Shown here one piece after another: positions 3,477 through 49,634 of a stretch of 64,000 nucleotides of DNA. A program made the position numbers and the translations under genes. Location of the stretch: contig CDROCS010005932.1 in NCBI GenBank assembly GCA_977020255.1, forward strand, positions 1-64,000, read 5' to 3'. Position 1 is the first letter of the stretch; each line of letters opens with the position of its first letter. Under the pieces are notes generated by a model that saw only the letters and a program-made list of their open reading frames with translations, ran no database searches and had not been told where the DNA came from. Source of the DNA: Obrimoposthia wandeli. Its lineage: Eukaryota.

Positions 3477-3680
3477 AACGGAGAGGAATATCTTGCCGAA
3501 GTTGATACTGATCTGTATCAGTACTGAGTAAAGAAATCTTATTATCAAAGAATTGTTAAGAGAAGTATGCCCTAGAAAAACAGACATTTGTTAACGTAAA
3601 TGGTACAGATGTAGTGTCATCAGAAGGAACACTGAAAATGTTCTGTTAAATATTTCATTTTGAAGAGCATTGCAGTTAAA
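3477..3680 (+). pseudogene. Upstream retropepsin-like (aspartic protease) domain remnant
   Basis: Restoring 1 nt after gtt gat act (3501-3509) gives NGEEYLAEVDT[G]SVSVLSKE. Downstream, FVNVNGTDVVSSEGTLKMF resembles the flap VSVNGDPVKVTGILPCTF of the second protease. Confidence 0.5.
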
Positions 3681-4386
3681 TGTCAGAATATTCACAGATT
3701 GTAGTCCAGTCGAATGATGGATGTATATTTGATGTTTGAAGCTGAATAATTATATTACCAAACCAACAAGAGTTTTAAAGAACGACAGTTCAGTGAGAGA
3801 TAAAATGTTGAGAGGACCTAGTAGTCGAAAAGGAAAATAATTATGTTCCGTATATGTAAAATCCGTACCAAGACAGGAAACAGGAAGCGCCAGTAAAGTC
3901 GATACTTCACTACAAAGAGAAACTACGGACCACAAGCTATGACGAGGGAGGAAAATAACATATGTGAATCTGTCGAAAAGATCCCTGAGAATCGGTAGTA
4001 AATAAACGAAGATCACTTGAACCGTACTATTCAAAAGAAATGTCACGTAAATGGCGAGAACAGGTTTACAAATGTTAAACACGACAAATAGTTATGGTTC
4101 TGAGGAAGTAGTACGATGCGTATGGTGCAGAGTAAGTTTAGAAAGTGGGAAAACAATGAAAACCCAATGAAACGTCATAAAGAGATGCACCAAATTGTCC
4201 ATTTCTCTGAAACTGAAAACTTCAAACGTACCAGAAATTCAAATGGGGAAAGCACCATCTGATTTCGACAACAGTGACGAGATTCCAGAAGGAGAATCAG
4301 CTCTAAAAGTAGGCAAAGTGATAACAAATAGCCGAATTGAAGATATATTCGAAGTAATGCGAGAAGTAAACGAATGTGACGAACAA

Positions 4387-4570
4387 TATCGAGAAGTAAC
4401 TTTCAAAGATCCTAGACTTAAAAAAATTGGCAAAAAAATAACTTTTTGCTATAAAAAAGGATGGTAAAGACGTCATTAAATGCCACAAGTGTAAAAAAGA
4501 ACGATTTATTGACAGATATACTCTTGAGTTATCTAAGAAAACTTTACATCATGAATTTTGCGAATTTTGT
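4387..4570 (+). pseudogene. BIR-like zinc-binding domain within the polyprotein (frameshifted)
   Basis: Reconstructed with copy B (~34047-34230): YREVTF...LKKLAKKxLFAIKKDGKDVIKCHKC-x18-H-x6-C. This matches the BIR pattern RxxTF...LAxxGF...DxVxCxxC...H-x6-C. Confidence 0.65.
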
Positions 4571-4865
4571 ACTTTTAAAAACAAAATAAAGCAAAAAGAA
4601 CAGAAAACCGAATGTATAATCGAATACCAAATCACACGGAAAGAGATTTTGGCTCAACAAGACACACCGGTAGTGTCATTCGTGAGAAGACTATATACAA
4701 AAAGAAGCAGAAAGAATCAGAGATTTGGTAGAATTAAAAATAAAAACTACGCGAAATGGATACGGATCAATTTTTTGAATTACTAAAAGATAAAGATGAC
4801 AGTACAATTGAAACAAAAGAGAAAGAGTACATAAACGAACTAGAATACGTACTAGAAGATCCAAC

Positions 4866-4990
4866 AGTGCAGTTTGCATGGTCAATAAAATAGAAGTTGC
4901 CTTTTTACTCATGCGGACATGTAAGAACATAAAGTCGGAGATGCGAAGGAAATGGTATCATGTCCGATTTGTAGAAGGATAATAGATCGA
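4866..4990 (+). pseudogene. IAP-type C3HC4 RING finger within the polyprotein
   Basis: Copy B reads xAVCMVNKVEVAFLPCGHVKTCRRCANEMVTCPICR (34521-34628). Copy A is the same motif with indels. Confidence 0.8.
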
Positions 4991-5099
4991 CAAGTGAGAA
5001 ATATTAGATTTCACTATCCAAACAAAGGAAGTGGACCGGGACAGAATTTAATAATTCAATAAATACAATATACCATATGGGAAATATAAATGGAGTTAA

Positions 5100-5420
5100 T
5101 ACAGCGACCAGCAGCTATCATCAGAGTAAATAATTTAAGAGTAAAAGCCTTAATTGATACAGAAAGGTGCTGTAGCTTCGATAGTAAGTGAAGATTGTTT
5201 GACAGAGGAACAGAAACGAACAATGACAGAACCAGATGAATTATTGGTATCAGTCAATGGAGACCCTGTAAAAGTGACGGGAATATTACCATGTACATTT
5301 ATAATTGGACGTAATACGATCACTATACCAGTTAGAATCATGAAAGTATGTCCTAAACCTACAATTTTAGGAATGGATATACTATCACAACTCAAAGGAA
5401 TAAGTATTGATTTACAAGAT
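5100..5420 (+). pseudogene. pol: Pol aspartic protease
   Basis: IRVNNLRVKALIDT + GAVASIVSE with a 4-nt insertion in the DTG codons, and later ILGMDIL. Copy B retains ALIDTG at 34804-34812. Confidence 0.85.
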
Positions 5421-5656
5421 CCAAGATTGAAGGATAGCACATCAAACAGACAAATAAACCAAATTGATGTAATTATAGAAAATCCTATAAAAATCGGTAA
5501 AAGATCACAATTTCTCATTCAAGGTCACACATTATCAGAAGATAAAGGACCAGTTGTGTTCGAACCATCACGAAATTTCATAGATAAATACGGAATTATC
5601 AGTTGTGAGTACAGTATGGGCGTCTGATTGAAAACCACAAAATACCAGTTAGACTG

Positions 5657-7165
5657 ATGAATACAACCAACAATGACATCCTGTTATACAGAGGAATGAG
5701 GTTGGGAAAGATAGCACAGATGAAGAATCCCACTGTGTGTGCTATGAAACTCGATAAAGACACGAATGATTACGAAGAAATAGTAATCCAATCAGAAAGA
5801 CTGACAACCAGAGAAAAGAAACAATTACTCGATTTAATACATAGATTTCCAAAGGTAATTGCCAAAAATCCGTATGACATAGGAGAAACACCTGTCATAA
5901 AACACACAATACCGCTGACAGAAGACAAAGTAGTCAGAAGAAGACCATATCGAGTACCATTACAGTTACAAGACGAAGTCAAAAGCCAGATCGAAGATAT
6001 GTTCAAAACAGGAGTAATTAGACCGAGTTTTTCACCATTCTCAGCACCTGTGGTGTTGGTAAAAAAGAAGGATGGAAAAATGAGATTCTGTATAGATTTC
6101 AGAGAACTGAACAAGATCACAAGAAAAGATGTTTATCCATTACCTAGAATCGAAGAGATGCTCGATAAATTGGGTAATTCAGATTATTTTACATTGATTT
6201 GCAGAGTGGATACTGGCAAATCGAGATAGAGGAAGAGGATAAACACAAACAGCCTTTTCCTGCGGAGATGGATTGTACGAATGCGAAAAAATGCCATTCG
6301 ACTGACAGGAGCCCCAGCAACATTTCAGCGTTGCATGAATTTTGTACTGCATCGTGTGAAACACGATGGTTTATATCGATGACATAATAATATTTTCGAA
6401 GACGTTCGAAGAACATTTAAAAAATCTTGAAGTTGTATTTAAAAGACTGGAAAACGCTAAATTAAAGTTAAACCTACAAAATGCGAATGGGCTAAAGAGC
6501 GAGTAACATTTTTAGGACATATAGTATCGAAAGAAGGTATTCGACCTGATCCAGCAAAGATCGAGAAAGTAAAAGCGCATTTAGCGCCAAAGACTGTTAA
6601 AGAAATACAGAGTTTTTTAGGTCTTGCGAACTATTATAGACGATTTGTTGAACATTTTTCAGATATAGCAACACCATTGAGAAAGTTGACGAGGAAAGAT
6701 GAGAAGTTCATATGAGGAAATGAAGCACAACAAGCGTTCGAACCTCTAAAAGAAAGACTGATAAAAGCACCAATATTAGCGTTTCCAGATATAAACCGAC
6801 AATTCATACTAATGACAGATGGGCAAGTAACTATGCTGTAGGAGCAGTATTGGGGACAAGAGTATGGCGAAGGAAGAGAACACGTCATCGTGTATGCGAG
6901 TAGAGGATTAAACAGAGCCGAAAGAGGATACTATGTTATTGAAAAGGAATGTCTAGCCATAGTATACTCATGTAGACAGTACAGACACTACTTGCTAGGA
7001 AAAAAAGTATTCCTGTATACAGATCACAAACCACTACAGTTCTTGTATAAACATAGAGACGAGATGAGTAGATTAAACAGATGGTTTCTGAAATTGGCCG
7101 AATTTGATCTAGAAATCCGTTATAAAACCGGAAAGTCGAATGACAACGCAGATTGTTTGTCGTGA
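5657..7165 (+). pseudogene. pol: Reverse transcriptase and RNase H (frameshifted, with stops)
   Basis: SPFSAPVVLVKKKDGKMRFCIDFRELN, YPLPRI, SGYWQI, YIDD, TFLGHIVS, YASRGL, EKECLAIV and TDHKPL: typical Ty3/Gypsy RT-RH. Confidence 0.95.
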
Positions 7166-7399
7166 TTGACAAATGTAGACGAGAAAGGAAACATAATTCT
7201 AGAAGAAGAACAAGATGAAACCTACGACCAAAAAGGAGAAGCAAATCTACTATCGATTTTATAAAGACGGGTAAAATAGACAAAGAAATCATCAAGGAAC
7301 AGAAAGAAGATGAAGAACTGAGTCTAATCACAGAACTGTTAGTGAAAGGAGATCTAAACGATGAAATGACGAAAAAATACTCGATAAAAAGAAGGAATC

Positions 7400-8600
7400 T
7401 TGTATATTGTCAACAATATAGGAAAGATAGTAGTAGTAATTCCGAAGTCATTGAAAACAGCAGTGATGATCCAGTACCACGATGGAAGACTGGGAGGACA
7501 TATGTCAGGGACGAAAGACAATAGCCAGAATCAAAGAGAAGTACCATTGGGATGGTGGAAGATGACATAAAACAATGGTGTAAACAATGTAAAGTATGTT
7601 TAACCAGAAAAGACACCGCCGGAACTCGTACTAAAGTTCCACTGAAACCGATGCCAGTTCCTTTGGCACCAATGGAATTCACAGCGATGGATATATTGGG
7701 ACCATTGAGAGAATCGAGTAAAGGAAACAAGTACGTCATAGTATTTACGGACTACATGACGAGATGGGTAGAAACATATCCCATGCAAAACCCCAAGGCT
7801 GAAACAATAGCGCAGATCTTAGTGGAAGAGATAAGATTTTGATACGGAGTGCCTAGAAAGTTATTAATGGATCAAGGCAAGAACTTCACTGAAGAAGTAA
7901 TAAAAGCAGTATCGAAGATATTTGGAATCATGAAGTTACAAACGTCACCATATCACCCACAAACCTATGGTCTAGTATAGAGGATTAATAAAACTTTATG
8001 TATGATGGTACAATCTTATTGCTCCGATAAGCAAGAAGATTGGGATAAATATTTACCTTCATGTTTATATGCTTACAGGAATTCAGTTCGAGAGGCGACG
8101 GTCACACACCATTCTATCTGATGTATCTCAGACAGAACAATATGTCAATAGATCTGGAGTGGACCGAACCAACATCTCAGTATCTAGAAACTGAACAATA
8201 CATTGTCGTTAGGAAAGAAAGATTACAAGATGCTTGGACTAAAGCAGGATTGAAACTGAAATTCAATCAAGAAGGTTACAAGGAACAATATGACAAAAAG
8301 GCAAAACCACATGAATTTAGAGTCGGAGATTAAGTGATGATATTTTACCCAGTCATCGAACCAGGTCTATCGTTTAAACTTCATAGACCATACAAAGGGC
8401 CATACAAGGTGATACAGACAACCTCAACGAACTTGAAAGTAATCAACGAGGAGAACCGGAACAAGGAACCAATGATTGTACATGCAAATCGATGTAAACT
8501 GGTACTGAATAAAGATAACGCGTCACGATATGAGTTAAGATCACAGAAACTGAAGCCGAATACCAATACCATTAAACTTACACGAATGGTAAGTGATTGA
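7400..8600 (+). pseudogene. pol: Integrase with GPY/F C-terminus (decayed)
   Basis: HDGRLGGH...CKQCKVC zinc motif, AMDILGP, LLMDQGKNF, SPYHPQTYG; catalytic Glu codon mutated to TAG; RPYKGPYKV and VHANRCK. Confidence 0.95.
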
Positions 8601-8615
8601 AACTACATAAATACG

Positions 8616-9734
8616 ATGACAAGTGGTAGCGAGGAAAAAGCAGCGAGAATTGGCATGCTCAGAACGAAGCACCAAGAGGAAAAAGAAGTAATCCGACACA
8701 TCGCACCACAAGAGATATTGGAAGAAGACGAAGAGATCATAGTCGTTTTCGAAAGAACACAACCAACAGACGTGGCGAAAGAAGTCATTGTGAAAGATGC
8801 ACTAACAAATGAATTTCTATGCGAACTTAGAGTGTCATACTACGATGGAAATACACTAGTCGCAGAACTGCATCAAAACTCCAATGTGTTTACAACTGAG
8901 AAAGTTATAATCGAAATCACATTAACACCAAACATAGTTGCATGGCAGAACTATGACAGTACTGAATCAGGACTAGCCAGTCAGGAAGAAAAAGAACCGC
9001 CCGGTGGTCACATACTTCATGGTACACCAAAAAGACTCAAACAAGAATACCACGATGTAATAATGGTGTTACGTAATTCACATGGGAGAAGAGACATAAT
9101 GAGAGTTCATTTAATCGACGTTGACACTGAAAAGATAATCTGTCAGATGGACACCAAATACTTTGACGGAAAGACCATTGTATGTAGTATACCGGAATCT
9201 CACCAATTAAACACAGATCAAACGGAAGTATCTGTAAGATTGAGCGTAATAGAAGGATTTCATTCGCCAACCCAACCGGAAGTAACAAACAATAAAATCA
9301 TTAAAGCAACGGCAGAGTTACGCATTGACAGCGGATACCGGAAGTGGGAAGCTAAAAATAAACCACAAAGAATCAATATGATCCGAGAACAAGTGACAAC
9401 CTCAATCCAACCAAAATATCATGCTGAAATAGTATCATCCGCGCCAAGTGTGATTACATCGATAAACGACGAAATTATAATTTTACTAAAAAATCGATGG
9501 CCGTCATCAACCGAGATACGAGTCAATTTAATTAATTATGCGAAAACACCGATATCTAAGCTGAATGTCACCTATTTTGATGCATTGTCCATCATGGGTA
9601 AATTGGAAACAATTGTCATGTGCTATGGAGCACAATTCCAAGTTGAGATACTTAAGGATAGTGTAATACCGTATCTGATTCACAGATACGCAGGACCAGT
9701 CAATCCAATTATTCTAACCCCTTCATTAAATTAA
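8616..9734 (+). CDS. Polyprotein segment with three ~80-aa repeats, IPT/TIG-like fold inferred
   Basis: Three alignable units (~8691-8925, ~9009-9250, ~9423-9660). In copy B the segment is in-frame with integrase (ORF 38896-40332). Confidence 0.55.
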   Translation: MTSGSEEKAARIGMLRTKHQEEKEVIRHIAPQEILEEDEEIIVVFERTQPTDVAKEVIVKDALTNEFLCELRVSYYDGNTLVAELHQNSNVFTTEKVIIEITLTPNIVAWQNYDSTESGLASQEEKEPPGGHILHGTPKRLKQEYHDVIMVLRNSHGRRDIMRVHLIDVDTEKIICQMDTKYFDGKTIVCSIPESHQLNTDQTEVSVRLSVIEGFHSPTQPEVTNNKIIKATAELRIDSGYRKWEAKNKPQRINMIREQVTTSIQPKYHAEIVSSAPSVITSINDEIIILLKNRWPSSTEIRVNLINYAKTPISKLNVTYFDALSIMGKLETIVMCYGAQFQVEILKDSVIPYLIHRYAGPVNPIILTPSLN

Positions 9735-10123
9735 TTCAGACAGACATACCAGAATACCCTTCGAGCGAGTCTAGTCAAGACAGCGAACCTGAAAGTAGCG
9801 ATCCAGAGTCAACAGAATCCGAAGATAACATAATAGAGCGATTCGGAAGAACCATGGAGGTTGAATTCGCTAAAGAGAGTAGAAAAAGACGAAACATAGA
9901 ATTCGTGAAACAAAATATACAAGAAAGACGAATTAAATCCGCAGAAGAGACCGAGTCGGAAGAGGAACCAACAAAAAAACAGACATCAGAGACAAAGATG
10001 AATATCTCTCCAGCGATACGAATGCTGAGAGGAAAGAAACTGGCGAAATTATCCATCATCAACGAACAACTAGAGAAGAGATTAGAAAGACTAAAACTTG
10101 AAGAGTCAGAATTAATGCCACCA

Positions 10124-10530
10124 ATGAGTGAGATCATTCCAGGTAAGTTATACCTCGGAAATGTGGAAGATGCAACAGACGAAAAGAAACTGTTGGAACA
10201 AGGGATAACATACGTGATCAATGTTACAATGAATCACAAATCGCAATATCAGACAATCAGAGCTATGACATTAAGAGTAAAAGACTCAATGGAGGCTAAT
10301 CTTCTCGAATGGTTCGTAGAAACAAACGAGATACTTCACAGAGAACTCCAAAACCAAGGAAAAGTGTGGTACATTGTCAGAAAGGAATCTCCCGATCAGC
10401 AACCCTAGTATTAGCGTATCTAATAAAGACTAGACGAATGCAGGTACTAGAAGCGCTGAAATACCTAAAGGAAAGACGAAGTATCGCGAACCCAAATCTT
10501 AACTTTTTGGGACAATTGTCAAATTACCAA
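10124..10530 (+). pseudogene. Dual-specificity protein phosphatase domain (1-nt deletion before the active site)
   Basis: SEIIPGKLYLGN...GITYVINVT...VHCQKGISRSATLVLAYLI...ALKYLKERRSIANPNLNFLGQL. HCx2GxSRS loop at 10372-10398. Copy B has KVLVHCLKGISRS in one frame (41061-41096). Confidence 0.9.
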
Positions 10531-10641
10531 CTCATGTTGCAAGAACAGAGACGGATGGACGACATCCCTGAGGATCCAAAGGAAAAGAATTTCCTCCAAG
10601 CACTATCGTTTACCGGTTTATTCTTAGCCGGAGTCGACAAA

Positions 10642-11049
10642 ATTACTCAGATAATGCCGAAAGTATTTCTATGTCATCCAGGAGATATAGATACTGCTGG
10701 ATTAAAGTTCCACAGTATCAACCCAGTAATTAACATTGTTGAAGTCGGAAATGAGATAATCAGCCTGCGTCAAAATACTGAAGATGACACAACTCGATAC
10801 ATACATGCTTCCAATCGGGAGATAAACGATGCACAACAACATCTGATGAAACTGACTCAAACCATCCAAGCCGAAGTCACAGAAGGAAACGGCGTTCTGA
10901 TATATCAGAAAAAAGGTACAATGTTAGCGCCTACCATAGGTGTATCCTTGTTGGTAGAGTACCATGGTCATACACCAGAAGAAGCGATGGTTTATATCAA
11001 ACAGAATAGACCAGATACGGAATTCAACCATTACTTGTTCGAGAAATAG
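10642..11049 (+). CDS. Second DUSP-fold domain lacking the catalytic Cys/Arg (pseudophosphatase)
   Basis: ITQIMPKVFL...GNGVLIYQKKGTMLAPTIGVSLLVEYHGHTPEEAMVYIKQNRP aligns to DUSP, with HCxxGxSRS replaced by YQKKGTMLA. Same motif in copy B. Confidence 0.65.
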   Translation: MTQIMPKVFLCHPGDIDTAGLKFHSINPVINIVEVGNEIISLRQNTEDDTTRYIHASNREINDAQQHLMKLTQTIQAEVTEGNGVLIYQKKGTMLAPTIGVSLLVEYHGHTPEEAMVYIKQNRPDTEFNHYLFEK

Positions 11050-11105
11050 AGAAATACTCCGAAAAGAGGAAGCAACAACGAGAAACAAATGAAGCTACAA
11101 CAACA

Positions 11106-13856
11106 GTGCCCAGCTATCAATACCAAAGATTGCTAGCACTAGGCTTGTTAAGTTGTCTAATGCCGATAACGGGAGCACAAGAGATAGGCTCCAACAACGG
11201 AAATAGTTCATGGTTCAAAGAAATCAACAACTACATCATGCAGTACAATACACCGACACTGATGATGCTATTAGTGTTGATAGGACTAATCGATGTTTGG
11301 CTTATCCGAAAATGTTTCCAATCTATGAGAACCGATAGAAAATGTTTCCAGTTTGTGAAAATGAAGAGACCAAATGAACCAACGAACCAAGTACTTGTGT
11401 ATCTAGACGAAAGGATCGAAGAAAACATAGTGAATGAAGCGATATTTTATCCACAAAACAGAATACTGAATCAATTCCGAATAGATTACGAAGCTGACCG
11501 ACAGCGCACACTTGACCGAATATCAACAACATTCGCCGGATGCAGGCGAAGAAAACGAATCGTAAAGGAAATACAAAAAGATGTGGATACAAAAGGTACG
11601 ACGTACATAATCGACGGCGATGTCATCAAAACACGTGAGTATGGAAGTAAGAGAGTGATAATTGAAACGATTGAAGGACATAAAACATGCTTGTCCGCCA
11701 AAATTGGATTCGGGAAATTGATGATACAAGGTAAACAGGTACAGTTGATTATCGGGAAAACTGGAATTGAAGAAATGTCAAAGCAACGACAGACAAACCA
11801 GACAAAATGACCTAACCAGAAACAGATGTTGCTCAAACGAATAATAATCAAAACCCTTTGCAAAAGGACAATCACGGCCCTGTGCACTGTTACACAAGGA
11901 TCGATCTACGGAGTAGTAATTGGATTGGTACTACAAGCCATTCCAACCAGTAAAGCTGAATTGATGACGCTACCTGGATATAATTTACATCTGAGAAATC
12001 TAGACAACACCCTAGAAATAATCAAGACGTCTTATAGTAAAGCCGTGATGATCATGTGTGTAAAAGGATGTCCAGGACGAATATGTGTAATCCCAGCAAC
12101 CGAAATGATAACACTAAATAATCATTATGGAATGAGTGTTGTCACATGTGAAGGATACACATTTGGACAAACTAAAATAGTACTTCTCAGTGACATGTCC
12201 AACCAAAGTACACATAAATTTAAAATATTAACCATCAAGAGTAAAGGGATACCAGCAATACGTTATGGTATTCTAGAATTGGTTAATCCAATACTAGCAT
12301 TGACTATCGGAGTCATAATAATAATATTGCTCATTTTGTTTTGTTGTACAAAGATAGAGTCGAGATCGAAAAAGAAACGTCATGATCTCGCAAGACAAGC
12401 AGGTCAAATGAATTTACAAAAATTCAACACAATGATACCAAGACCAGCATTCCTAAATGAACCAGCACCAAAGTATCAGCCAACGATATACGAACATATC
12501 GAGGAAAGACAATACTACATGAGTAACTTGAGTTATCCTAGAGAAGTTCTTGAGATTAGAAAGCAGACGATCATAGGAATCATGCTGATCATGCAAATCA
12601 CCACGACCGAGGCTGGTTATGAGATCATGATCAGTAAATGGAGACAAGATACGATACGGGCGTTATCCATAAAAATACCTCTAATAAAAACAAATTACGT
12701 AATAGGCATTCACCTACAAACATCAGCAACCGAAAATGTCGATCAGAAATTGTATGTCATTCGCCAGATCAAAATAAAGATTGACCAACATAAACTTTAT
12801 TACCGACTGATATTATTCTACCATGAAAAGGTATTATACCTACGAATAACAATATCAAAAAGGAAACGGATTATTCAAATTATCCGAACAAAGTCATTAA
12901 TATTACCTAACGACGAGCGCATCTGGAAAGTTGTCGACAGGATTATGATCACAGGTAGACGACGTAAAACCGTATGGAATTCCGTTAGAATATTCTTCAG
13001 ATTGTTAGAAACTGACCAGGTAACAGTGGCGTGTCCCAATCCAGATGGTGGAATCCGATTCGAAATTCAAAACCAAATGTTAGTACCACATTTTGATGCA
13101 GAATGTCTATGTAACCGAATTCCCAGCAATGCTAAAGAGACCACTACCATAATCATGGTAATAACAGATGAAATATTCTACATAACTCTAAGATACCAGA
13201 CACGTCGATTTCGTGGACTCGGTATAAGTATTAAACCCAGGAAAATCATTCCCGGAAAACCAATCAAAGTCATAAAAAAGGAAAAGGTGAAAGGAAGTAA
13301 ACGCCATTCCAAAAAACCAATCATAGTCAAAAAGAAGGCAAAGGTAAACGGAAGTAAACGCCATTTCGAGAAGCCAAAAGTAGTCATAACAAAGGCAGAA
13401 GTGAAAGGAAAAGAGCTCGATCTCAGAAATCAAAGTACAATTATTAAGAGTACAAGAGTGAAGGGAACGATTCCACTAGATCCCAAATATCATTTCCAAT
13501 CTCAATTAATAATACCTGTTAGACCGAAAACAAAATATCCAAATCCGCGAGTTATTAGAAAATCGGACATAATACATGGAAACCGATCAACACCAATGGA
13601 AACGCCATTCAAACCGACAAACAACAAAATGAAGTATGATTACCAATCATCAGACAGCGGAATAACAGCGGTCAATGCTCTAATTGGAATGGCAGTAGTG
13701 TCAACAGCAGTAGTTCTATTGACAGTCGTGTGCGTGAAAGGCAGTCAGGTATGCCCAAGAATACGACGGAAATGCGAAGGACTGCGATGCTGTAACACAC
13801 CCACAATGGAGGAAGTGGAATTGCGACCCTTACCTCCGCCTCCCATCAAGACATGA
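11106..13856 (+). CDS. C-terminal membrane-protein region of the polyprotein (one in-frame TGA at 11808)
   Basis: ORFs 11106-11810 and 11826-13856 share a frame, and the TGA is CGA in copy B. Three signal-peptide-like and three TM-like hydrophobic segments. Confidence 0.7.
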
Positions 13857-13981
13857 TAAGTCAGAGGAGGTTGTAGATAAATTAGTGTGTAAAAATATGT
13901 AGAAATATCTAGAAGCGATTGTACAAATAAGTAGAAATATGTAAAACCCATGTAGAAATTAATTGTCATCATGTATTTAGA

Positions 13982-14281
13982 ATGTCCGAAGAATGCCCAA
14001 TATGTTTGGAAGATTTAACCGAACGAAGAACAAGACCCGATACCTGCAACCACTTACACCACGAGGAATGTTTGTCAAAATGGATCAGAACCTATGGAGA
14101 GACTCCCTATCCGACATACCCTCGTTGCCCTGTATGCAGAAGACAATTCACAAAGTTAATCAAAATAGAACCCAACCAAGAGGATGTAGATGTACAGGTG
14201 ATATTATGTTGGAAGAATTTGAGAGAGTGTTGGTGTTATTACTGTTTATCAGAACGACAAAATTCGACCACTTTTGTGTAA
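13982..14281 (+). CDS. Small RING-H2 protein 1 (99 aa)
   Basis: CPIC...CNHLHHEEC..W...CPVC plus C-terminal CWKNLRECWCYYC. Confidence 0.85.
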   Translation: MSEECPICLEDLTERRTRPDTCNHLHHEECLSKWIRTYGETPYPTYPRCPVCRRQFTKLIKIEPNQEDVDVQVILCWKNLRECWCYYCLSERQNSTTFV

Positions 14282-14341
14282 ACATCGCACAACCACCAGC
14301 CCTCAATCGAGCCCAATTTCAACATCAACCCTCTCACAGTA

Positions 14342-14647
14342 ATGTCTGGAGAATGTTCAATCTGCTACGAGAACATCGTGGACCTCTATACCAAACCCAA
14401 CAACTGTGACCACCAGTTCCATGTCGAATACCTCGAGACGTGGATCCCAATCGCAAACAACAACAATCCCCTCGACTACCCAAACTGCCCGATGTGCAGA
14501 GCAACCTTCTCGGTGCACTATGTCTACAACCGGGACAGCCTCCAAGCAGTGGTACCCATTGTACACTGCTGGAAAAACATATGCGACTGCTGGTGTTCGT
14601 TCTGCGTAGAGGAGCGACGCACAGGCCAGCCCAACAGCCAGCAGTAA
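14342..14647 (+). CDS. Small RING-H2 protein 2 (101 aa)
   Basis: CSIC...CDHQFHVEY(C in copy B)..W...CPMC plus HCWKNICDCWCSFC. Confidence 0.85.
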   Translation: MSGECSICYENIVDLYTKPNNCDHQFHVEYLETWIPIANNNNPLDYPNCPMCRATFSVHYVYNRDSLQAVVPIVHCWKNICDCWCSFCVEERRTGQPNSQQ

Positions 14648-14997
14648 CCGAAGGTAACTTTTGACTTAAAACGTGACATCATGAACTACCCTGTGTATCG
14701 CACACCGCGATAAAATAACTACCATAATTGTAATCATAATTGTATAATCTTGCGAAACTGTAAAATGACCATTACCATTTTTATGTATGTTGTTTATTTG
14801 AAATTGTAATTATTAGACTGAAACTCCAAAAGACAATTTTTTATGCTTAGTATGAATGTGAAAAACATGCCTAAAATCAAGACAAAATTCGGTAGGATTA
14901 AAATACTAAGGCTTATAATATTGAAATTAAAATATTAAATTCATAAATTAATATTAAACCCAATTGAACCCCAAATTAAAGAGTAATTATTGCGCAG

Positions 14998-15528
14998 ATG
15001 CTTTGCTCAATTAGCCTCGAGAAAATCTGGGCAGAGTCGGCATCCCCTGCCGGGTGCCGGCACAAATTCCACGAATCCTGCCTCTATTTGTGGGCCAAGG
15101 CTCGACCCTCCGGCCACATCACATGCCCGATGTGCCGGGCACCCTTTTCCGAGTGGACGCTCCAGTGCCGTGGACGACCCAAGGGCACCCACTCATCCAC
15201 CAGTTGCATTGGTGGCGAGCACTGTCAGTGCTCCGTGTGCCTCGCGCGCCGTCGCAACGCACAATTGGGCATCCGCGAACGATGGCGGTCTAGCCGCGAT
15301 AACCGCTCATGGCAACAGGCCAGACGCTTATGGATGGAGAATTATGAGCTGTACGGGCAGGATTTCGATTTATTTATCGAGAGCTCACACCTGACCCCGG
15401 ACCAGCAGGTGGACCTACTCCTCGGGGACATTCCGTCCTTCCCAGACCTACCCCTGGAGCAGGTCATGCTCTATTTGGACAGTCAGAACCAGCCAACAGT
15501 AACAATTGACCTCACCAGCAACAACTGA
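14998..15528 (+). CDS. RING-H2 protein 3 (176 aa)
   Basis: CSIS (second Cys changed)...CRHKFHESC..W...CPMC, then CIGGEHCQCSVC and an acidic tail. Confidence 0.75.
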   Translation: MLCSISLEKIWAESASPAGCRHKFHESCLYLWAKARPSGHITCPMCRAPFSEWTLQCRGRPKGTHSSTSCIGGEHCQCSVCLARRRNAQLGIRERWRSSRDNRSWQQARRLWMENYELYGQDFDLFIESSHLTPDQQVDLLLGDIPSFPDLPLEQVMLYLDSQNQPTVTIDLTSNN

Positions 15529-16415: not shown

Positions 16416-17142
16416 GCAGACGCACTCCGATCGCAGAGGCAGTAGCTAACGAAAAAATACTCGTCGAGAAAATCCGAGCAGGAATAAAATTCGAGAATCA
16501 GAGTTACAGTAGTTAGAGTCCAAGAAAGAATTTAGAGGAAAGGTCGCAAATTGTTGTATCGGACAGCAGACGAACACAGCAGCAGCACAAGATCTCGCAG
16601 ATCCTTCTAGCAATCACCAAGCTCGAACGCGGAACTAGGACTCAAAGGACTCTCGAACACCGACGGATAGACCAAAGGCGATAGATCTCCAAACGAGACC
16701 GGACGGACGAGATCTTCGGAGTAAGCCGAAGTCTGCCGATATTGGAGGAAGGTCAATAACGCGATTTCGTGGAAATTATTTTACATCCTTTGCAGTTCGA
16801 CACGGAAAGAAGAACAGCGAGCAAGAAGCCGAAACGGAGCTATTCGGAACCAGGAAGTTGTCTCCGTGGAAACAGAGGTATCGGACTAATCCAGCACCAC
16901 GCCAAACTCCACAAAAGGTCCGTAACAGAACAAGACAATTCTAGCAACCGAATAAACCGCCTCGTACAAAACAATCCTAGCGACTGTATCAATCCCACAA
17001 AAGGACCGATCTCAGAGCGAGCATTACGGAAGACAATCGGAAGGTCTGCCAGAGCAAGCCTACGCATAGAATTATTCGGAGAGAGGTAAGAAGCGAACCG
17101 AATAATTGTGAAGTGAATTAAAGTAAAAGAAAAAACGTTACT

Positions 17143-18470: not shown

Positions 18471-19129
18471 TCCGCAATTGAAATCGGATTGTTCTGCATT
18501 TTACCTAAATTAGAGCAACAACTCTACTAAACTTTATCCCGTGTTAGAGCAACAGCTCGGTAAACTACTGGTATTTTAGATCAACGCTCTGTAAACTTGT
18601 CGCAATTTTAGAGTAAAGACTCTAGCGCCAACCAACCCTAAACCTAAAATCGATACGTGGTTCATCCCTACTTGTGTAGAGACTTACGGAAGTATTAGGA
18701 ATTTTACTGTAACTTTTTAGAAATACGTACGTAAACGTATTGCTTTGTGTTAGTCTAGTGTGTTAATAAATAAACGATTTCCTACATTAGAAAGCATTGT
18801 TCTAAACCCTTCAGATTAAGAGACATCGGAAAACAAACACCTTCAGATAAGAATTGAGACAGGCAACTATAACATTAAGTAGGCCACGACCATCCTTAAG
18901 TCCTGCTTCTATAAGAACTCACGTTGGGGCCCTCCACACTAAAGAGGATCTATAAGTTTCATATAGAAACCCCAACACTATCTTAGACGATGATGGCTTT
19001 TTGAGAAGTAATACAAGAATTATCCATGCTGAATTTTTCAGTTATGATGTACAATTCTCGATTATTGTGTGCGAGAAGAGCAGTTTAGCAAGGTTGATTA
19101 TAAAAGAAATCAACAAGAAGTTGAAGCAC

Positions 19130-29365: not shown

Positions 29366-30100
<735 letters not shown>

Positions 30101-33357: not shown

Positions 33358-35041
33358 TGACTTCCTCGCGAAATATTCGAATAGCGCAGACGTTCAAGGA
33401 TGGAACGATAGAGGAAAATGTGTCCGCGTACAGGCGCATTTTACCGGACTAGCACTCGAAGTGTATAAACATTTTACAGAAGCAGAACGTGCAAATTGGG
33501 AAACATTAGAAAATGCTTTTATAGGAAAATTGGTATTGGGAGATTTAGCAAAAGAGAATAAACGAATATTGAGAGAACAGGACTGAAACATGACGAGAGC
33601 GTGAATGGATATGCGTATGTTTTGAGAACCTAGGCAGCGCAAGCGCATCCAAGAAAAATATTGAGAAATCAGGCAGATGAACCTGTAGCTGAAAATGTAC
33701 AATTAGCGGAAGATAGTTTTGTTAGATATATTCAGAGGACTGACAAAAGACATTAAAGTATTATAGGCAGTATCGGATTCAAATGATTTTGACAACGCCG
33801 TTGGGAAAAAAAATTGGAGAAACAATGATAACCCAACGAAACGTCATTAACTGGAAGCACCAACGTGTCCATTCACCCTAAAATTAAACTGCAAATGAAC
33901 CAGAAATGCAAACAGGAAAAGCACCTAATTTTGACAGTGACAAGATTTCAGAAGAAGGAACAGCCCAAATAAAAAAGCGTTGTAATAAAAAACAGTCGAG
34001 GATATATTCGAAGTAATGCGAGAAATAAACGAATGCAACGAACAGTATCGAGAAGTAACTTTTGAGGATCAACGACTTAAAAAATTGGCAAAAAAAGAGA
34101 CTTTTTGCTATAAAGAAGTATGGTAAAGACGTAATTAAATGCCACAATTGCAAAAAGGAACGACTTATTGATAGATATACTGTTGAGCTACCTAAGAAAC
34201 TTTACATGACGAATTTTGTAATTTTTGTAATTTAAAAAACAAAAAGAACCAAAAGAACCGAAAACAGAATGTATAGTCGAATACCAAATCACACAAAAAG
34301 AGATTTTGGATCAACAAGACACACCAGTAGTGTCATTCGCGAGAATGTTTTATCCAAAAGAATAAGACAGGATCAGAGAATTGGTAGAATTAAAAATAAA
34401 AACTACGCGAGATGGATACGGATCAATTTTTGAATTATTACGAGATAAAATGACAGTACAATTAAACAAGAACAAAAAGAGTACATAAATGAACTAGAAT
34501 ACATGCTGGGAGATCCAGAATATGCAGTTTGCATGGTCAACAAAGTAGAAGTTGCCTTTTTACCATGTGGACACGTGAAAACATGTCGGAGGTGTGCTAA
34601 CGAAATGGTAACATGTCCGATTTGTAGAATGATAATAGATTGACAAATGAGGAATATCAGATTTCACTATCCAAAAAAAATAAATTAGACCGACGAAATG
34701 TAACAATTCGATAGATACAGTATACCATATGGAAAATATAAATACAGCACAGCGACCCGCAGCTATCATTAGAGTCAATAATTTAAAAATAAAAGCCTTA
34801 ATTGACACAGGCACAGTAGCATCGATAGTGAGTTAATATTGTTTGACAGAAGAACAGAAACAAACAATGTCAGAACCAGATGAATTCTTGGTATCGGTCT
34901 ACAGAGACCCTATAAAAGTGACGGGAGTATTACCATGTACATTTGTAATATGACGTAATACGTAACTGGATACATTAGGACTATTGAGAAAATCAAGTAA
35001 ATGTAATAAGTATGTAATAGTATTTACGGACTACATGACGA
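33358..35041 (+). mobile_element. Giant Gypsy copy B, 5' fragment (Gag capsid, BIR, RING, protease, integrase scrap)
   Basis: FLAKY...QGWND...HFTGLALEVY...WETLENAF...ESVNGYAYVL (Gag capsid). 33806-34960 is homologous to 4140-5290, and 34961-35041 to 7690-7762. Confidence 0.85.
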
Positions 35042-37916: not shown

Positions 37917-38314
37917 TGTTCTGACGTAGTATTTAAGATTTTTACCAAAAATTTTAGTAATTAAAGAATTTTGTAAATAAATTAAATCAAATTTAAATTA
38001 GATTAAAAATTAGAGATGAAAAGTTAAAAAATAGTCTATTATTAGAATAGTTTTGAATTTGCAGGTTTAAAATTAATTTGTTTTATGATGCCACGTAGGT
38101 AGTTGTTTACAACAAAAAAAGAAGAAAAGGTATGGGATCTCGATTTAGTGTTATGCCTTGAAATGGTCGTGATTTAATTATTATTCTTTCTAGAGTTGCG
38201 TTGTATTCCTTCTAATTGTGCTGTGTAAAGTTTTGTGAAAGAAATTGAAAATATAAAAGAAGGTTTACTTTAGTGATTTGATTTATTTTTAGAGATGACG
38301 CCAACACGTAAACA
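37917..38314 (+). repeat. BEL/Pao 3' LTR (398 bp)
   Basis: TGTT...AACA termini; near-identical to 35042-35410. Confidence 0.9.
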
Positions 38315-41300
38315 TAAAGTATGTTTAACCAGAAAGGATACAGGAACTCGTACTAAAGTTTCACTGAAACCGATGCCAGTTCCTTTGGCACCAATAGAAT
38401 TCACAGTGATGGATATATTAGGACCATTGAGAGAATCAAGTAAAGGTAATAAGTATGTCATAGTATTTACAGACTACACGACGAGATGGGTAGAAGCATA
38501 TCCTATGCAAAACCAGAAGGCTGAAACAATAGCACAAAACCTGGTAGAAGAGATAATATTTCGATACGGAGTACCTAGGAAATTATTAACAGATCAAGGA
38601 CAGAATTACACTGGAGAAGTAATAAAAGCAGTATCAAAGATATTTGGAATCATGAAGTTAAAAACTTCACCATATCACTCACAAACTGACGGTCTAGTAG
38701 AGAGGTTTAATAAAACTCCGATAAGCAAGAGGATTGAGATAACTATTTACCTTCTTGTTTATATGCTTACATAAATTCAGTTCGATCTATTCACCATTCT
38801 ATCTGATGTATCTCAGACATAACAATATGCCAATGGATCTGGAGTGAACCCAACCAACATATCAGTATCTAGAAACTGAAGAATACATTGTCGTCATGAA
38901 AGAAAGATTACAATATGCTTGGATTAAAGCAGGATTGAAATTGAAATTCAATCAGGAAAATTACAAGGAACAATACGACAAGAAAGCAAAAGCACATGAA
39001 TTTAGAGACGGAGATCAAGTGATGATATTCTATCAAGTCATCAAACCAGATCTATCGTTTAAACTTGACAAACCATACAAAGGACCATACAAATTGATAC
39101 AGACCACCTCAACGAACTTGAAAGTAATCAACGAGGAGATCAGGAACAAGGAACCAATGGCTGTACATGCGAACCGATGTAAACTGGTACCGAATAAAGA
39201 TAATGCATCACGATATGAGCTAAGCTCGCAGAAATTGAAGCCGAACACCATTATAATTAAACTTACACGAATGGTAAGTGATCGAAACTACATAAATATG
39301 ATGACCAACAGTAATAGTTCGAAACCAGTGAGAATTGGTATGCTCAGGATGAAGCACCAGGAGGAAAGAGAAGTCATCCGACACATCGCACCACAAGAGA
39401 TATTAGAAGAAGACGAAGAGTTCATAGTCGTTTTCAAAAGAACACAACCAACAGATGTAGCGAAAGAAGTTATTGTGAAAGATGCATTAACAAAAGAATT
39501 CCTGTGCAAACTTAAAGTGTCATATTTCGATGAAAATACATTAGTAGCGGAACTAAATCAAAATTCCAATGTGTTTACAACTGAGAAAGTGATCATAGAA
39601 ATCACCCTGACACCAAACATAGTTGCATGGCAGAACTATGATAGTACTGAAGTAGGATTAGTCAGTCAGGAGGAAAAAGAACCGGCTGGTGGTCATATAC
39701 TTCATGGAACACCGAAAAGACTTCGACAAGAATATCATGATGTGATAATGGTATTACATAATACACATTGGAAAAAAGATATAATAAGAATTCATTTAAT
39801 CGATGCAGATACAGAGAAGATAATATGTAGAATGGTCACCAAATATTTTGATGGAAAGACCATTGTATGTAATATATCGTCAAGCCATCAACTAGAAACA
39901 GATCAAACGGAAGTATCTGTGAGGTTGAGCGTAATAGAAGGATTCTACTTGCCAACCAAGCCGGAAGTAACGAATAATAGAATAATCAAATCAATGACAG
40001 AGTTACGCATTGACAGTGAATACAGAAACTGGGAAGCTAATACTACACCCCAACAAATAAGCATGATCAGACAACGAGCAAACGACTCGATCCAACCGAA
40101 ATGTTATGCCGAATTAGTATCGTCCGCACCCACTATAATTACATCAATAAATTACAAAATAATAATATTACTGAGAAATCAATGGCCCTCGTCAACCGAG
40201 ATACAAGTAAACTTGGTAAATTATGCGAAAACACCGATATCAAAACTAAATATCACCTATTTTGATGGACTGTCCATCATGAGTAAATTGGAAACTCTCG
40301 TTAAGTTTCTATTGAGCACAATTCCAAGTTGAGATACTTAAAAATAGTGTAATTTCTTATAATTTCCTATCCAATTTCTAGAGACTTTGGACCGTTCAAT
40401 CAATTTATTTTACCCCCACCATTGATTTCAGTTAAAACATACATGCCAGAACACCCTTCGAGCGAGTCTACCCAAAGCAGCGAACCAGAAAGCAGCGATT
40501 TGGAGCCAGAAGAATCTGAAGACGACAGAATAGATCGATTCGAAAGAACTATGGAGATTGAATTTGCTAAAGTAAACAAGAAAAGACGAAACATAGTTTT
40601 CGTGAAGAAGAATATACAAGGACGGCGAATCGAATCTGAAGAGGAAACCGAGTCAGAAGAGAAAAAAATGAAGGAACAAACACTTGAGACAAAGAAGAGT
40701 TTTACACCAGCAATACGAATGCTGAGAGGAAAGAAACTGGCGAAACTAGTCATCACAGATGAACAAATAAAGAAACGGTTAGAAAGACTAAACCTTGATG
40801 AGTCGGAAATTACACCAGAGATGAGCGAGATAATTCAAGATATGTTATACCTCGGAAATGTGGAAGACGCAACAGACGAAAACAAACTGTTAGAAAAAAG
40901 AATAACATATGTGATCAATGTTACAATGAATCACAAATCTCAGTACAAAACAATCAGAGCTATAACATTAAGAGTAAAATACTCAATGTAGGCTAATCTT
41001 TTCGGAGGGTTCGGAGAAACAAACGAGATAATTTACAACGAACTACTAAACAAAAGAAAAGTACTGGTACATTGCCTGAAAGGGATCTCTAGGTCAATAA
41101 TCCTGGTATTATCATATCTAATAAAGAGTAGAAGAATGCAAGTACTAGAAGCGTTGACATATCTACAAGAAAGACGAAGTATCGTAAACCCAAACATAAT
41201 TTTTTGGGGACAAATGGCAAATTACTAACTCATGTTACAAGAACAAAGACGGATGTATGACATTCCCGAATATCCAAAGGAAAAGAATTTCATTCAGTGA

Positions 41301-44300
41301 TTATCGTTGACCGGATTATTCCTAGCAGGAGTCAACAAAATCACCCAGATAATGCCTAAAGTATTTCTATGTCACCCTGGAGATATAGACACTGCTGAAT
41401 TAATGTTCCACTGTATAAACCGAGTAATTAAAATCGTTGAAATTGTAATTGAGATAATCAGTATACATGCTTCAAACCAAGAGGTAACTGATGTACAAGA
41501 ACACCTGGCGAAGTTGACTCAAACCATCCAAAACGAGGTCACAAAAGGAAACGGTGTTCTGATATATCAGAAAAAGGCACAATGTTAGCACCGACCATAG
41601 GTGTAGCATTGTTGGTAGAGTACCATGATCACACACCAGAGGAAGCGATGGTCTACATCAAGCAGAATAGATCAGACACGGAATTCAAACCGTTACTCGT
41701 TCGAGAAATAGAGAAATATTCCGAAAAAAGGAAGAAACAACCAGAAGCGAGTGCGAATGTAGCAACAGTACCGAGAGCTCAGTATCGAAAATTACTAGCA
41801 CTAAGCTTGTTAAGTTACCTTATGCCAACAACGGGATCACAGGAGATAGGCTCCAACCGTGGAAAGAGTTCCTGGTTTAAAGGAATAAACAACTACATCA
41901 TGCAGTATAATACACCGACACTGATGATATTACTAGTGTTGATAGGACTGATCGATGTTTGGCTAATTAGGAAATTGTTTCAAGTCATAAGAAACGACAC
42001 ATAAAGATTCCAGTTTGTAAAAATGAAGAGACCAAATGGACCAACGGCGGAAGTACTTGTTTATCTAGACGGAAGGATAGAGGATAACATAGTATATGAA
42101 GCGATATATTATCCGCAAAACATACGACTGAATCAATTCCGAATGGACTACGAAGCTGACTGACAGCGCACACTCGATATGATACCAGAAACGTTCGCAG
42201 AATGTGGGCGAGGTAAAAGAATTGCGAAGGAAATACAAAAAGAATTGGATACAAAAAGTACAACTTGTATATTCGACGGCGATGTCATCAAAACACTTGA
42301 GTATAGAAGTAAAATAGTGATAATCGAAAACAAGGAAGGACGTAAAACATACTTGTACGCTAAAAATGAATTCGGAGAGCTAGTGATACAAGGCAAACAA
42401 GTACAGTTGATTATCGGAAAAACCGAAATCGAAGAAATGTCAAAACAACGACAGATAACCAAGACAAAACGATACAACCGGAAACAAATTTGTTTGAAAC
42501 AAATAATAATCAAAACTGTTTGCAAAGTGACAATCAAGACCATGTGTACTGTTGCACAAGGAATGGTTTACGGATAAGTAATGGGATTAATGCTACAAGC
42601 CATTCCTACCAATAAAGCTGAACTGATGACACGAGCTGAATACAATTTACATTTAAGAAATCTTGGAAATAATCAAGACATCTCACAGTAAAGCAGTGAT
42701 GATAATGTGTGTGAAAGGCTGTCCAGAGCAAGTATGTATAATACCAGCAACATAAACGAAAACACTGGATGGATATTATGGCGTTAGTGTTATCACATGT
42801 GAAGGATACACATCTGAACAAACTAAAATCGTATTTCTAAGGGACATATAAAACAAAAGTTCACATAAATTTAAAATATTAACCATCAAGAGTAAAGGGA
42901 TAGAAATAATACATTATGGCATACCAGAATTAGCCAATCCAATTGTGTCACTCATTAACGGATTCATAATATTAATATTACTCATCTTGATGTGCTGTAC
43001 AAAGATCGAGCTGAAATCAAAGAAGAAAAGTCATGATTTTTCAAGACGAGTAGATCAAATGAATTTACAAAAATTTGACACAACTTGCTAAGGCCAGCAT
43101 TCATAAACGAACCAGCACCGGAGTATCAGCCAACGATATATGAACGTATCAAGGAAAGGCCATACTTTATTAGTAGTCTGATGTATCCGAGAGACGTTAC
43201 TGAGATCCGGAAACGGACAATAATAGGAATCATGCTGGTCATACAAGTCACATCAACTGAGGCTGGTTACGAGATCATTGTCAGTAAATGGAGACAAGAT
43301 ACGATACGAGCGCTATACATAGAAATACCTTTACTAAAAAGAAATCACATAGTGGACATTTAACTACAAACATCCGCAATGAAAATGTCGACCAGAAGTT
43401 GTACATTATTCGCGATATTAAAATAAAGATTGAAAAACATTCACTTTACTACCGAATAATCCTATTTTATTACGAGAATATGTTATACATACGAATAACT
43501 ATATCTAAAAGGAAACGGGTTATTAAAGTCATCCGAACAAAAGCAGTAATATTACCAAACGACGAACGCATCTGGAAAGTTATATAAGATTATAGTGACA
43601 GGTAAACGACGTAAAACTGTATGGAATTCCACTACCCTTTTTTCAGTTTGCTGGAGACTGACAAAGTAACAGTGGCGTGTCCCTATTTAGTCAATGGAAT
43701 CAAATTTGCAATACAACCCCAAATTTTAATATCACATTATGATGTAGAGTGCACATGTAACCGAATCCCCGGTGATACTAGAGAAAGATCTATCGTAATT
43801 ATCGCAATAATGAATCAAGTATACTATGTAACTCTGAAGTACCGAACAAGTCGATTCAATGGAATAGATACGAGAACCAGACTCAGGAAACCCCATCCCG
43901 GAAAACCAAACACGATCATAAAAAAGGCAAAAGCGGAAGGAAGAAAGCAAAGCACGATCATCGAGAGAAAAAGAGTGAAGGGAACGATTCCACTGAATCT
44001 CAAATCTCGAATAATAATAAAACTCAGACAAGAACCCTAAAGTCAAAAACCTCGAATGATCAAAAAATCGAAAATAATGTTCAGAAATCGAACAGAACCG
44101 CTCGAAACACCATTCAAACTGACAAACATCAAAGAAAGGTATGATTATCAATCCACAAACAGTGGAATGACACCAGTCAATGCTCTAATAGTAATGGCCA
44201 TAGTCTCTACTGCAGTATTTCTACTGATAGTCATGTGCGTAAAAGGTAGTCTTGTATGCCCAAAGGTACGATGACGATGCAAAGAACTACGATGCTGTAA

Positions 44301-45127
44301 CCCACCCATGATGGAGGAAGTGGAAATGCAACCCTTTCCTCCGCCTTCCATAAAGACGTGACATGTCAAAGGAGATTGTAGATAAATAAGTGTGTAAAAA
44401 GATGTAGAAAGTGAGTGTAAAGAAACGTGTAAAATTCTGTAGAAATCATGTAGAAATTAATTGTCATCACGTATTTAGAATGTCTGAGGAAGGCCCAATA
44501 TGTTTAGAAGATATACCAGAACGAAGAGCACAACTCAATACCTGCAACCACCTATATCACGAGGAATGTTTATCAAAATGGAACATAACTTATAGAGAGT
44601 TACCCCATCCAACATATCCTGCTCTGTACGAAATACATCATAATAGAACCCAACCAAGACGACGTAGATGTACAGGTGGAATTTTGTTGGAGAAACCTGA
44701 GAGAGTGTTGGTGTATTTTCTGTATAGCAGAACGACAGGACCCGACCACTTTTGTGTAAACATCACACAACAACCAACTTTCAATGGAGTCCAAATTCAA
44801 CACCACCCCTCTCACAGCAATGCCTGGAGAATGTTCCGTCTGCTACGAGGAAATCTAGGACTGTTACACCAAACCCAACAACTGTGGCCACGAATTTCAT
44901 ATTCAATGCCTCGAAACCTGGATCCACATCGTCAACAGCACCACACCCCTCGACTACCCAACCTGTCCGATGTGTAGGACATCCTTCTAGGTGTATCACA
45001 TCTACAACAGAGATTGCCTCCAGACAGTGGTACCCATCGTACACTGCTGGAAAGACATTTGCGACTGCTGGTGTATTTTTTGCGTGGAGGAGCGATGGAC
45101 AAACCAGCCCAGCAGCCAACAATAACC
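38315..45127 (+). mobile_element. Giant Gypsy copy B, 3' fragment (integrase to RING2)
   Basis: Colinear with 7590-14650 of copy A. Includes IN + repeat ORF 38896-40332, DUSP ~40821-41229, pseudo-DUSP, membrane region to TGA 44361, and RING pseudogenes 44480-44759 and 44820-45125. Confidence 0.92.
38896..40332 (+). CDS. Integrase C-terminus fused in frame to the triple repeat domain (copy B)
   Basis: 478-aa ORF: KPYKGPYKL...VHANRCK...VSDRNY...RHIAPQEIL.... Confidence 0.8.
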   Translation: MKERLQYAWIKAGLKLKFNQENYKEQYDKKAKAHEFRDGDQVMIFYQVIKPDLSFKLDKPYKGPYKLIQTTSTNLKVINEEIRNKEPMAVHANRCKLVPNKDNASRYELSSQKLKPNTIIIKLTRMVSDRNYINMMTNSNSSKPVRIGMLRMKHQEEREVIRHIAPQEILEEDEEFIVVFKRTQPTDVAKEVIVKDALTKEFLCKLKVSYFDENTLVAELNQNSNVFTTEKVIIEITLTPNIVAWQNYDSTEVGLVSQEEKEPAGGHILHGTPKRLRQEYHDVIMVLHNTHWKKDIIRIHLIDADTEKIICRMVTKYFDGKTIVCNISSSHQLETDQTEVSVRLSVIEGFYLPTKPEVTNNRIIKSMTELRIDSEYRNWEANTTPQQISMIRQRANDSIQPKCYAELVSSAPTIITSINYKIIILLRNQWPSSTEIQVNLVNYAKTPISKLNITYFDGLSIMSKLETLVKFLLSTIPS

Positions 45128-49594: not shown

Positions 49595-49634
49595 GTATGA
49601 TTAAGTTTATTGTTTCATTGTTACAATATGGCAG

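Follow-up and report, generated by a model that had tools for sequence, protein, structure and literature searches.

In receptor PTPs, which belong to the classical PTP family and not to the DUSPs, an active phosphatase domain is followed by an inactive, regulatory one near the membrane, and the TM precedes both domains. Cdc14 has two tandem DSP-like domains, of which A aids specificity and B is catalytic (PMC12796106, PMC7038166). Typical MKPs dock through an N-terminal CH2/rhodanese domain with a KIM (PMC8622459), while in baculoviruses PTP2 has a MAPK-phosphatase-like motif and requires its catalytic Cys (PMC5923475). Among retroelements, the planarian Burro elements are giant and Gypsy-like, and carry BIR, BCL2-like, RING, ankyrin and MATH domains (PMC6431247).

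Here we describe two decayed copies, A and B, of a Ty3/Gypsy-type element in which a DUSP domain (D1) is followed, in the Pol reading frame, by a second DUSP-like domain (D2) that lacks the catalytic residues. Both lie in one window, the whole stretch of 64,000 nucleotides of Obrimoposthia wandeli DNA that was analysed. A first-pass annotation, made from the letters alone, had read the pair as an active DUSP joined to a dead, substrate-trapping pseudo-DUSP within a retroelement, and had named a DSPc profile search on both domains and dN/dS across the copies as checks. Coordinates are collected in Table 1.

Table 1. Features of the element copies in the window (all positions are window positions).
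Feature	Positions	Strand	Remarks
Decayed Ty3/Gypsy pol, copy A: protease region, RT, RNase H, integrase	5105..8546	+	Pfam; Ty3 RT; collinear Pol relatives
Three ~85-aa beta-sandwich repeats, IPT/TIG-like, copy A	8682..9686	+	In frame after integrase; no hydrophobic segment
Acidic, then basic/helical linker before D1, copy A	9733..10123	+	Translation; dN/dS 0.42
D1, DUSP catalytic domain, copy A	10124..10540	+	Asp 10283; HCX5R 10372-10395; frame break near 10365
D2, pseudo-DUSP, copy A	10646..11065	+	Asn 10813, Tyr 10903, Gln 10906, Leu 10924 at Asp/His/Cys/Arg; A-only frame break near 11025
In-frame continuation after D2	11066..13856	+	TM 11250-11318, 12267-12368, 13662-13745; ends at shared stop 13854
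Three paralogous RING-H2 ORFs	13979..15528	+	After shared stop; Pfam zf-RING_2 E 2e-10, 1.5e-6, 2.8e-6
Copy B, upstream part	33811..34962	+	Matches A 4142-5318; C3HC4 RING ahead of protease
Copy B	38308..45127	+	Collinear, integrase to second RING ORF; blastn 81% and 77%
D1, copy B, one frame	40821..41255	+	Premature stops; Tyr at Asp position; HCLKGISR at 41070
D2, copy B	41343..41731	+	12 codons shorter in loop; frame break inside P-loop remnant; same Asn/Tyr/Gln/Leu

Two copies of a Ty3/Gypsy-type element

Self-comparison of the window by blastn gives 81% identity between copies A and B, which are collinear from the integrase to the second RING ORF: positions 7580-14649 of A pair with the main part of B at 81% and 77% identity, and 4142-5318 of A match the upstream part of B. 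The DNA similarity stops at 14649, and the flanks differ past 14649/45127. No LTR pair was found anywhere in the window; A may start before base 1, and B is rearranged. Copy B has no RT or RNase H. Nested in it at 35040-38315 is a second element whose direct repeats of ~375 bp are 94% identical and whose integrase core lies at 36714-37235. Both copies are dead today.

The pol region of A is matched by the Pfam families RVT_1, RT_RNaseH, Integrase_H2C2, rve and Integrase_p58_C, the best solved relative of its RT is the Ty3 RT (E 1e-21), and the region is collinear with the Pol of the relatives P0007, P0008, P0009 and P0015 (see below). The order protease-RT-RNase H-integrase with a Ty3-like RT is that of Ty3/Gypsy (Metaviridae-type) elements, so that the retroelement context of the first-pass annotation is confirmed by the RT, RNase H and integrase pieces as well as by Ty3 as nearest solved RT. 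No gag match at Pfam E<=0.01 was obtained among 31 plus-strand ORF pieces of the heavily decayed stretch of A from 1 to 8600. The hallmark of Errantivirus, the env-carrying Ty3/Gypsy elements, is an F-type or gB-type envelope glycoprotein (PMC13524379); in Pfam, neither of the two TM ORFs matches an env family at E<=0.1. In B, a RING precedes the protease (Pfam zf-C3HC4_3, E 2.2e-11, at 34449-34640; RVP, E 0.0057, at 34684-34833). We take this C3HC4 RING to be IAP-like; its decayed counterpart in A lies near 4800-5000.

The AT skew is 0.25-0.28 over pol, repeats, D1-D2 and TM (0.25-0.26 for D1-D2) against -0.04 to 0 in three flanks. The DUSP pair has a strand skew equal to that of pol, with the flanks close to zero, in support of its belonging to the element. 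Most of the 3' cassette shows about twice the synonymous divergence (0.29-0.48) of the integrase (0.20 in 7619-8500); recombination between lineages may account for this.

Concerning the rest of the window, an open ORF of 590 aa for a piggyBac-type transposase (DDE_Tnp_1_7, E 1e-62) occupies 23466-25238, a DUF5641 fragment lies at 19904-20089 and an IS1595-type transposase remnant at 53746-53937. A four-finger C2H2 gene, presumably YY1/pho-like, is found at 29366-30103 with a possible upstream exon at 26959-27531, and exons of the RmlD/epimerase family, which we take to be MAT2B-like, at 49388-49916. The piggyBac transposase and the YY1-like gene suggest that the host is an animal. There is also a 64-bp satellite of about 21 copies with 98% matches (17141-18471), and a 31/62-bp tandem array (53547-53778).

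One reading frame under purifying selection

Integrase, three IPT/TIG-like repeats, D1, D2 and membrane segments follow one another up to a stop shared by both copies. From the integrase to 13850, the 1987 codon pairs contain 18 premature stops, five in A and 13 in B, none of which is shared; the sole stop common to A and B is the one at 13854. Wherever a gap breaks the frame of one copy, as happens at 12 places, the other remains open, and a single-frame ORF of B (38848-40332) spans the integrase C-terminus through the repeats. Since no premature stop is shared and the other copy is open at the gaps, integrase, repeats, D1, D2 and membrane region once formed one ORF, and the D1-D2 pair is a part of it and no separate gene.

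Resting on two copies and inflated in every ratio by decay after insertion, the dN/dS values obtained from codon pairs in gap-free A/B blocks (kappa 4.0, via 584 four-fold sites) are 0.42 for the whole region, 0.38 for the integrase, 0.45 (0.26-0.83) for D1, 0.11 for the D1-D2 linker (34 codons), and 0.22 for D2 (125 codons, CI 0.11-0.39), with 0.12 for the 67 codons of D2 from the P-loop onward. A linker ratio this low is expected if both domains pack together. Amino-acid differences in D2 number 19 against 33.6 +/- 2.9 expected (1 of 2000 permutations as low), and those in D1 33 against 42.8 (4 of 2000). The comparison across copies thus indicates purifying selection on D2, at a level not significantly above that on D1 (p 0.14) or the integrase (p 0.29).

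These data bear on the explanation that D2 is a passenger in decay, or that a segmental duplication caught a host gene, the DUSP pair, next to the element. The heavy decay of A and B and the lack of bounding LTRs in the window would suit this explanation. Against it stand the purifying selection on D2, the lack of a shared premature stop, the continuity of the pair in frame with the integrase and without introns, a strand skew like that of the element, and flanks that differ beyond 14649/45127. We consider this explanation largely refuted already and give it hardly any probability.

The DUSP domain D1

The P-loop motif first noticed in domain 1, HCQKGISRS in A and HCLKGISRS in B, is borne out by a six-frame motif scan of the window, which yields just two HCxxGxxR matches, HCQKGISR starting at 10372 and HCLKGISR starting at 41070. 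The DSPc profile matches D1 in both copies. In A, where D1 is split into two frames directly ahead of the P-loop, the N-half (E 5.8e-8) and the C-half (E 4.1e-21) match separately, and in B, with stops read as X, the match covers positions 1-130 of 133 of the profile (E 1.7e-28). Asp, Cys and Arg are all present in A, on both sides of the frame break; B has no Asp. The description of D1 as active would accordingly be apt for the ancestral element only, as A has a frame break and B a premature stop together with Tyr in place of the general-acid Asp.

The nearest solved relative of D1 is DUSP10/MKP5 (E 2.7e-16), which leads DUSP22 and DUSP18 about ten-fold, and the N-half taken by itself prefers DUSP22. 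Given this narrow lead and the preference of the N-half, D1 may be an atypical DUSP. No Cdc14 chain occurs among its 43 solved matches at E<=1e-8. Pfam found no rhodanese domain in the ORFs upstream of D1; KIM-like strings, loose and weak, occur in the linker.

The pseudophosphatase domain D2

D2 of A is matched by Pfam DSPc with an E of 1.3e-6 (profile 2-120 of 133), at 28.7 bits and thus under the cut-off of 33.5. The two pieces of D2 in B, which are 79% and 78% identical to D2 of A, gave by themselves no Pfam match at E<=0.01, so that the profile search succeeds in A, below the cut-off, and fails in B. The top ESM-Atlas match of D2 is DSPc (0.95), each of the 22 chains matched in PDB at E<=1 is a DUSP/PTP (best E 0.0031), and a search of 1.84 billion representatives, for which no length filter is stated, gave two matches, both ordinary DUSPs with HCX5R at 27-29% identity. 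All these searches agree with the first-pass view that D2 keeps the DUSP scaffold, and on this sequence evidence D2 is assigned the DUSP fold; the single-sequence AF2 model has a pLDDT of 34. The Pfam match is to DSPc, and none to the Cdc14 N-terminal family was obtained. Of the 51 residues aligned between D1 and D2, only 12 are common to both, and a DUSP tree of seven rows had no starred branch and was uninformative.

Aligned with each other, A and B have identical residues at the His, Cys and Arg sites (Tyr, Gln and Leu) and at the site of the general-acid Asp (Asn, an assignment that depends on the alignment). The string YQKKGTMLA, said to be present in both copies, is intact at 10903 in A; in B it is split into YQKK (41565) and KGTMLA (41573), which lie in different frames. 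The end of the feature had been put at 11049, which has to be revised: the stop at 11047-11049 lies after the A-only frame break near 11025, and D2 of A therefore extends to ~11065; the last helix of the domain and the ORF continue beyond this stop, across which B is open. At the Cys site, all three nucleotides of the Gln codon would have to change to give a Cys codon; from Leu to Arg it takes two changes. With the same residues in both copies, a dN/dS of 0.22 and 19 differences where 33.6 are expected, the catalytic loss predates the A/B split and is not decay, as the first-pass annotation had held. Purifying selection on a domain that is to all appearance non-catalytic marks D2 as a true pseudophosphatase, conserved without Asp, Cys and Arg.

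A different question is whether D2 acts as a phospho-substrate trap of the STYX type, as first proposed, either holding phosphorylated host proteins for D1 or keeping them from host phosphatases. The P-loop half is the most conserved part of D2 (dN/dS 0.12), only one of 19 listed loop codons changes the amino acid, and Asn at the general-acid position, as found in D2, is often found in traps. However, the same half forms the hydrophobic core of the fold, so that its conservation singles out no ligand site. STYX too retains the P-loop Arg. STYX competes with MKP-2 for ERK, which it binds phosphorylated or not, and this would favour a trap, but the phosphate-cradling Arg is retained in MK-STYX as well (FSX5R; PMC8622459) and is Leu in both copies here. 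The loss of the phosphate-binding Arg, along with that of the general-acid Asp, weakens the substrate trap and makes it doubtful; we regard it as rather unlikely.

Neighbouring domains

The three repeats between integrase and D1 (39367-40370 in B) align with one another, and dN/dS is 0.29 for 8501-9732. Their AF2 model is an all-beta sandwich (pLDDT 60) that resembles the IPT/TIG domains of Met, plexin, NF-kB, NFAT, BCAP-DBB, EBF and CAMTA with VIA Z values of 5.7-7.7, which at Z<8 on a pLDDT-60 model is a lead only, as is the Atlas TIG score of 0.84. Foldseek gave nothing at E<=0.001, with the NFAT Rel-homology C-terminal domain ranked first, and a profile search against PDB sequences returned one match (E 1.1). 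Judged from the model, the repeats, as cytosolic domains, could possibly be decoys for Rel/NFAT/BCAP dimerisation.

The region that follows D2 gives dN/dS values of 0.43, 0.52 and 0.67 in three blocks, and no Pfam or PHROG family beyond weak, TM-driven matches. Besides the TM segments, signal-peptide-like stretches were identified by eye; the one at 11130-11177 is below the threshold of the hydropathy scan. Downstream of one TM of the region are a di-cysteine, a basic patch and a tail rich in Tyr and Pro. The match of a TM ORF to Orthoreo_P10 (E 0.0055) is weak, was taken as TM-driven and was rejected. Directly after D2 come a stretch of basic residues and a hydrophobic segment. Two lysines (KK) in the loop of D2 might bind acidic lipids and make of D2 a membrane-proximal spacer that positions D1; the same lysines would fit a protein interface too, though, and we hold such a lipid-binding role to be very unlikely.

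The RING-H2 ORFs are mutually similar, with dN/dS 0.55 and 0.40 for the first two, and each has a second Cys-rich motif. The third is without a DNA match in B and, at a GC content of 0.56-0.62, is richer in GC than the element is elsewhere.

Relatives of the element

A search with the RT found 747 proteins, of which 120 were listed and examined. Among these 120, P0007, P0008, P0009 and P0015 are the closest, with integrases 61-69% identical to that of the element, which groups with them at 100/98 in a tree of 34 of the 57 integrase-bearing relatives (the integrase row of the nested element has a very long branch and was disregarded). The Pol of all four runs in frame into a signal peptide, an ectodomain and a TM, that is, a type I membrane protein. 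The tails of P0007, P0008 and P0009 are homologous to each other, and P0008 also has hydrophobic segments ahead of the protease. Their Pol ORFs contain no HCxxGxxR, DSPc or IPT match and end after one membrane module, and none of the 120 listed relatives has HCxxGxxR or a listed DSPc. The extension from integrase to membrane is thus a trait of the clade; the IPT-like repeats, the DUSP and the pseudo-DUSP appear to have been inserted later, as a block.

The ORF with half of D1 and D2 had no match among 958 longer candidates (437-2000 aa) and just three generic DUSPs among 196 of similar length; tblastn against phages gave one weak Mollivirus DUSP record. No intact DUSP-bearing member of the family was found in the protein collections searched.

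The pair could also be directed at the element itself, with Gag or integrase of the element being dephosphorylated by D1 as particles mature, and with D2 as a structural or scaffold part of the particle or of a membrane complex. Being made in the Pol frame, the two domains would be packaged with Pol. Viral precedents exist, as the captured PTP of BmNPV is a virion structural protein whose activity is not needed for this (PMC3320614), and vaccinia VH1 targets viral as well as host proteins (10.1101/2020.05.26.100743). But the absence of a DUSP from the Pol ORFs of the four closest relatives, among the 120 listed of 747, indicates that the module is dispensable for replication in the clade, and its company of IPT-like and RING domains suggests host signalling. 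An element-directed role is therefore conceivable, with a probability that we consider low.

Proposed role and significance

As D1 has no rhodanese/KIM docking domain, we propose that D2 is its partner in cis. The reading we tentatively prefer, at a little under even confidence, is that D2 would be a docking or scaffold partner of a MAPK-phosphatase-like D1 acting against host stress and immune kinases. A Ty3/Gypsy-type retroelement would have acquired a cassette of host-signalling domains within its Pol reading frame, in which D1 would have worked as a MAPK-phosphatase-like enzyme and D2, 35 residues past it, would have provided substrate docking, stability or dimerisation, similar to the A domain of Cdc14. 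The module would have been cytosolic, either tethered through the hydrophobic segment after D2 or freed by the protease of the element, and may have damped JNK/p38-type stress and innate-immune signalling where the element replicated, with IPT-like decoys and RING ligases acting alongside. The choice of host kinases as target rests on DUSP10/MKP5 as nearest solved relative of D1 and on the neighbouring domains.

A bolder proposal, which we think possible but improbable as a whole, is a Metaviridae lineage resembling complex retroviruses, with a multi-pathway anti-host cassette in the Pol frame. The cassette would comprise IPT decoys against dimerisation of the Rel/NFAT/BCAP type, a MAPK phosphatase tethered to the membrane and given its specificity by the co-captured pseudophosphatase, membrane proteins released by signal peptidase in place of a classical env, and RING ligases. 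If this were true, it would be the first phosphatase plus pseudophosphatase encoded by a retroelement, and would indicate an active suppression of invertebrate innate signalling by elements of this kind.

Retrotransposons are usually considered to face only silencing at the RNA and chromatin level. A DUSP/pseudo-DUSP pair kept by selection within the Pol frame suggests that some of them also counter kinase signalling, like large DNA viruses. With this pair, the domains that giant Gypsy elements have captured come to include a phosphatase. Moreover, as a pseudophosphatase from which Asp, Cys and Arg are all missing, D2 is useful to ask what such folds bind without a phosphate pocket.

Full-text literature searches gave, among the best results listed, no report of a phosphatase encoded by a retroelement, and the word 'phosphatase' is absent from the main text of PMC6431247, PMC5408684, PMC6338049 and PMC13524379, which treat the env or the accessory domains of retroelements. 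It is already known that giant Gypsy elements capture domains, that DNA viruses capture DUSPs (PMC5923475) and that an active and a dead phosphatase can stand in tandem; the combination of a DUSP and a pseudo-DUSP in the Pol frame appears to be new.

Comparison with known systems

With receptor PTPs and Cdc14 the element shares the pairing of an active and a dead phosphatase domain, of which it offers a further case. In receptor PTPs the TM precedes the domains, whereas here it follows D1-D2. Cdc14, as described, likewise has two tandem DSP-like domains, one catalytic and one helping substrate specificity, but its inactive A domain is N-terminal to the catalytic B domain, an order reversed here, where the catalytic D1 comes first; in addition, D2 matches DSPc, and the solved relatives of D1 are MKPs and atypical DUSPs. 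The resemblance is an analogy and not homology. STYX and MK-STYX are similar to D2 in having a DUSP fold without the catalytic Cys and in being under selection (PMC8622459, PMC8907265). MK-STYX keeps the Arg, whereas D2 is without Asp, Cys and Arg and is fused to a DUSP, D1, in a mobile element.

Burro is likewise Gypsy-like, with a very long polyprotein and captured host regulatory domains that are read as meddling with apoptosis and ubiquitination (PMC6431247). Its extra domains, among them a fusion-glycoprotein homologue, lie mostly between gag and protease, whereas the present cassette comes after the integrase and, unlike that of Burro, consists of IPT-like repeats, a DUSP and a pseudo-DUSP. 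Vaccinia VH1 and the baculovirus PTP and PTP2 are DUSP-type phosphatases captured by a parasitic genome, with catalytic as well as non-catalytic uses; these viral DUSPs are stand-alone proteins of large DNA viruses, whereas here the domains stand in tandem in the Pol frame of a retroelement.
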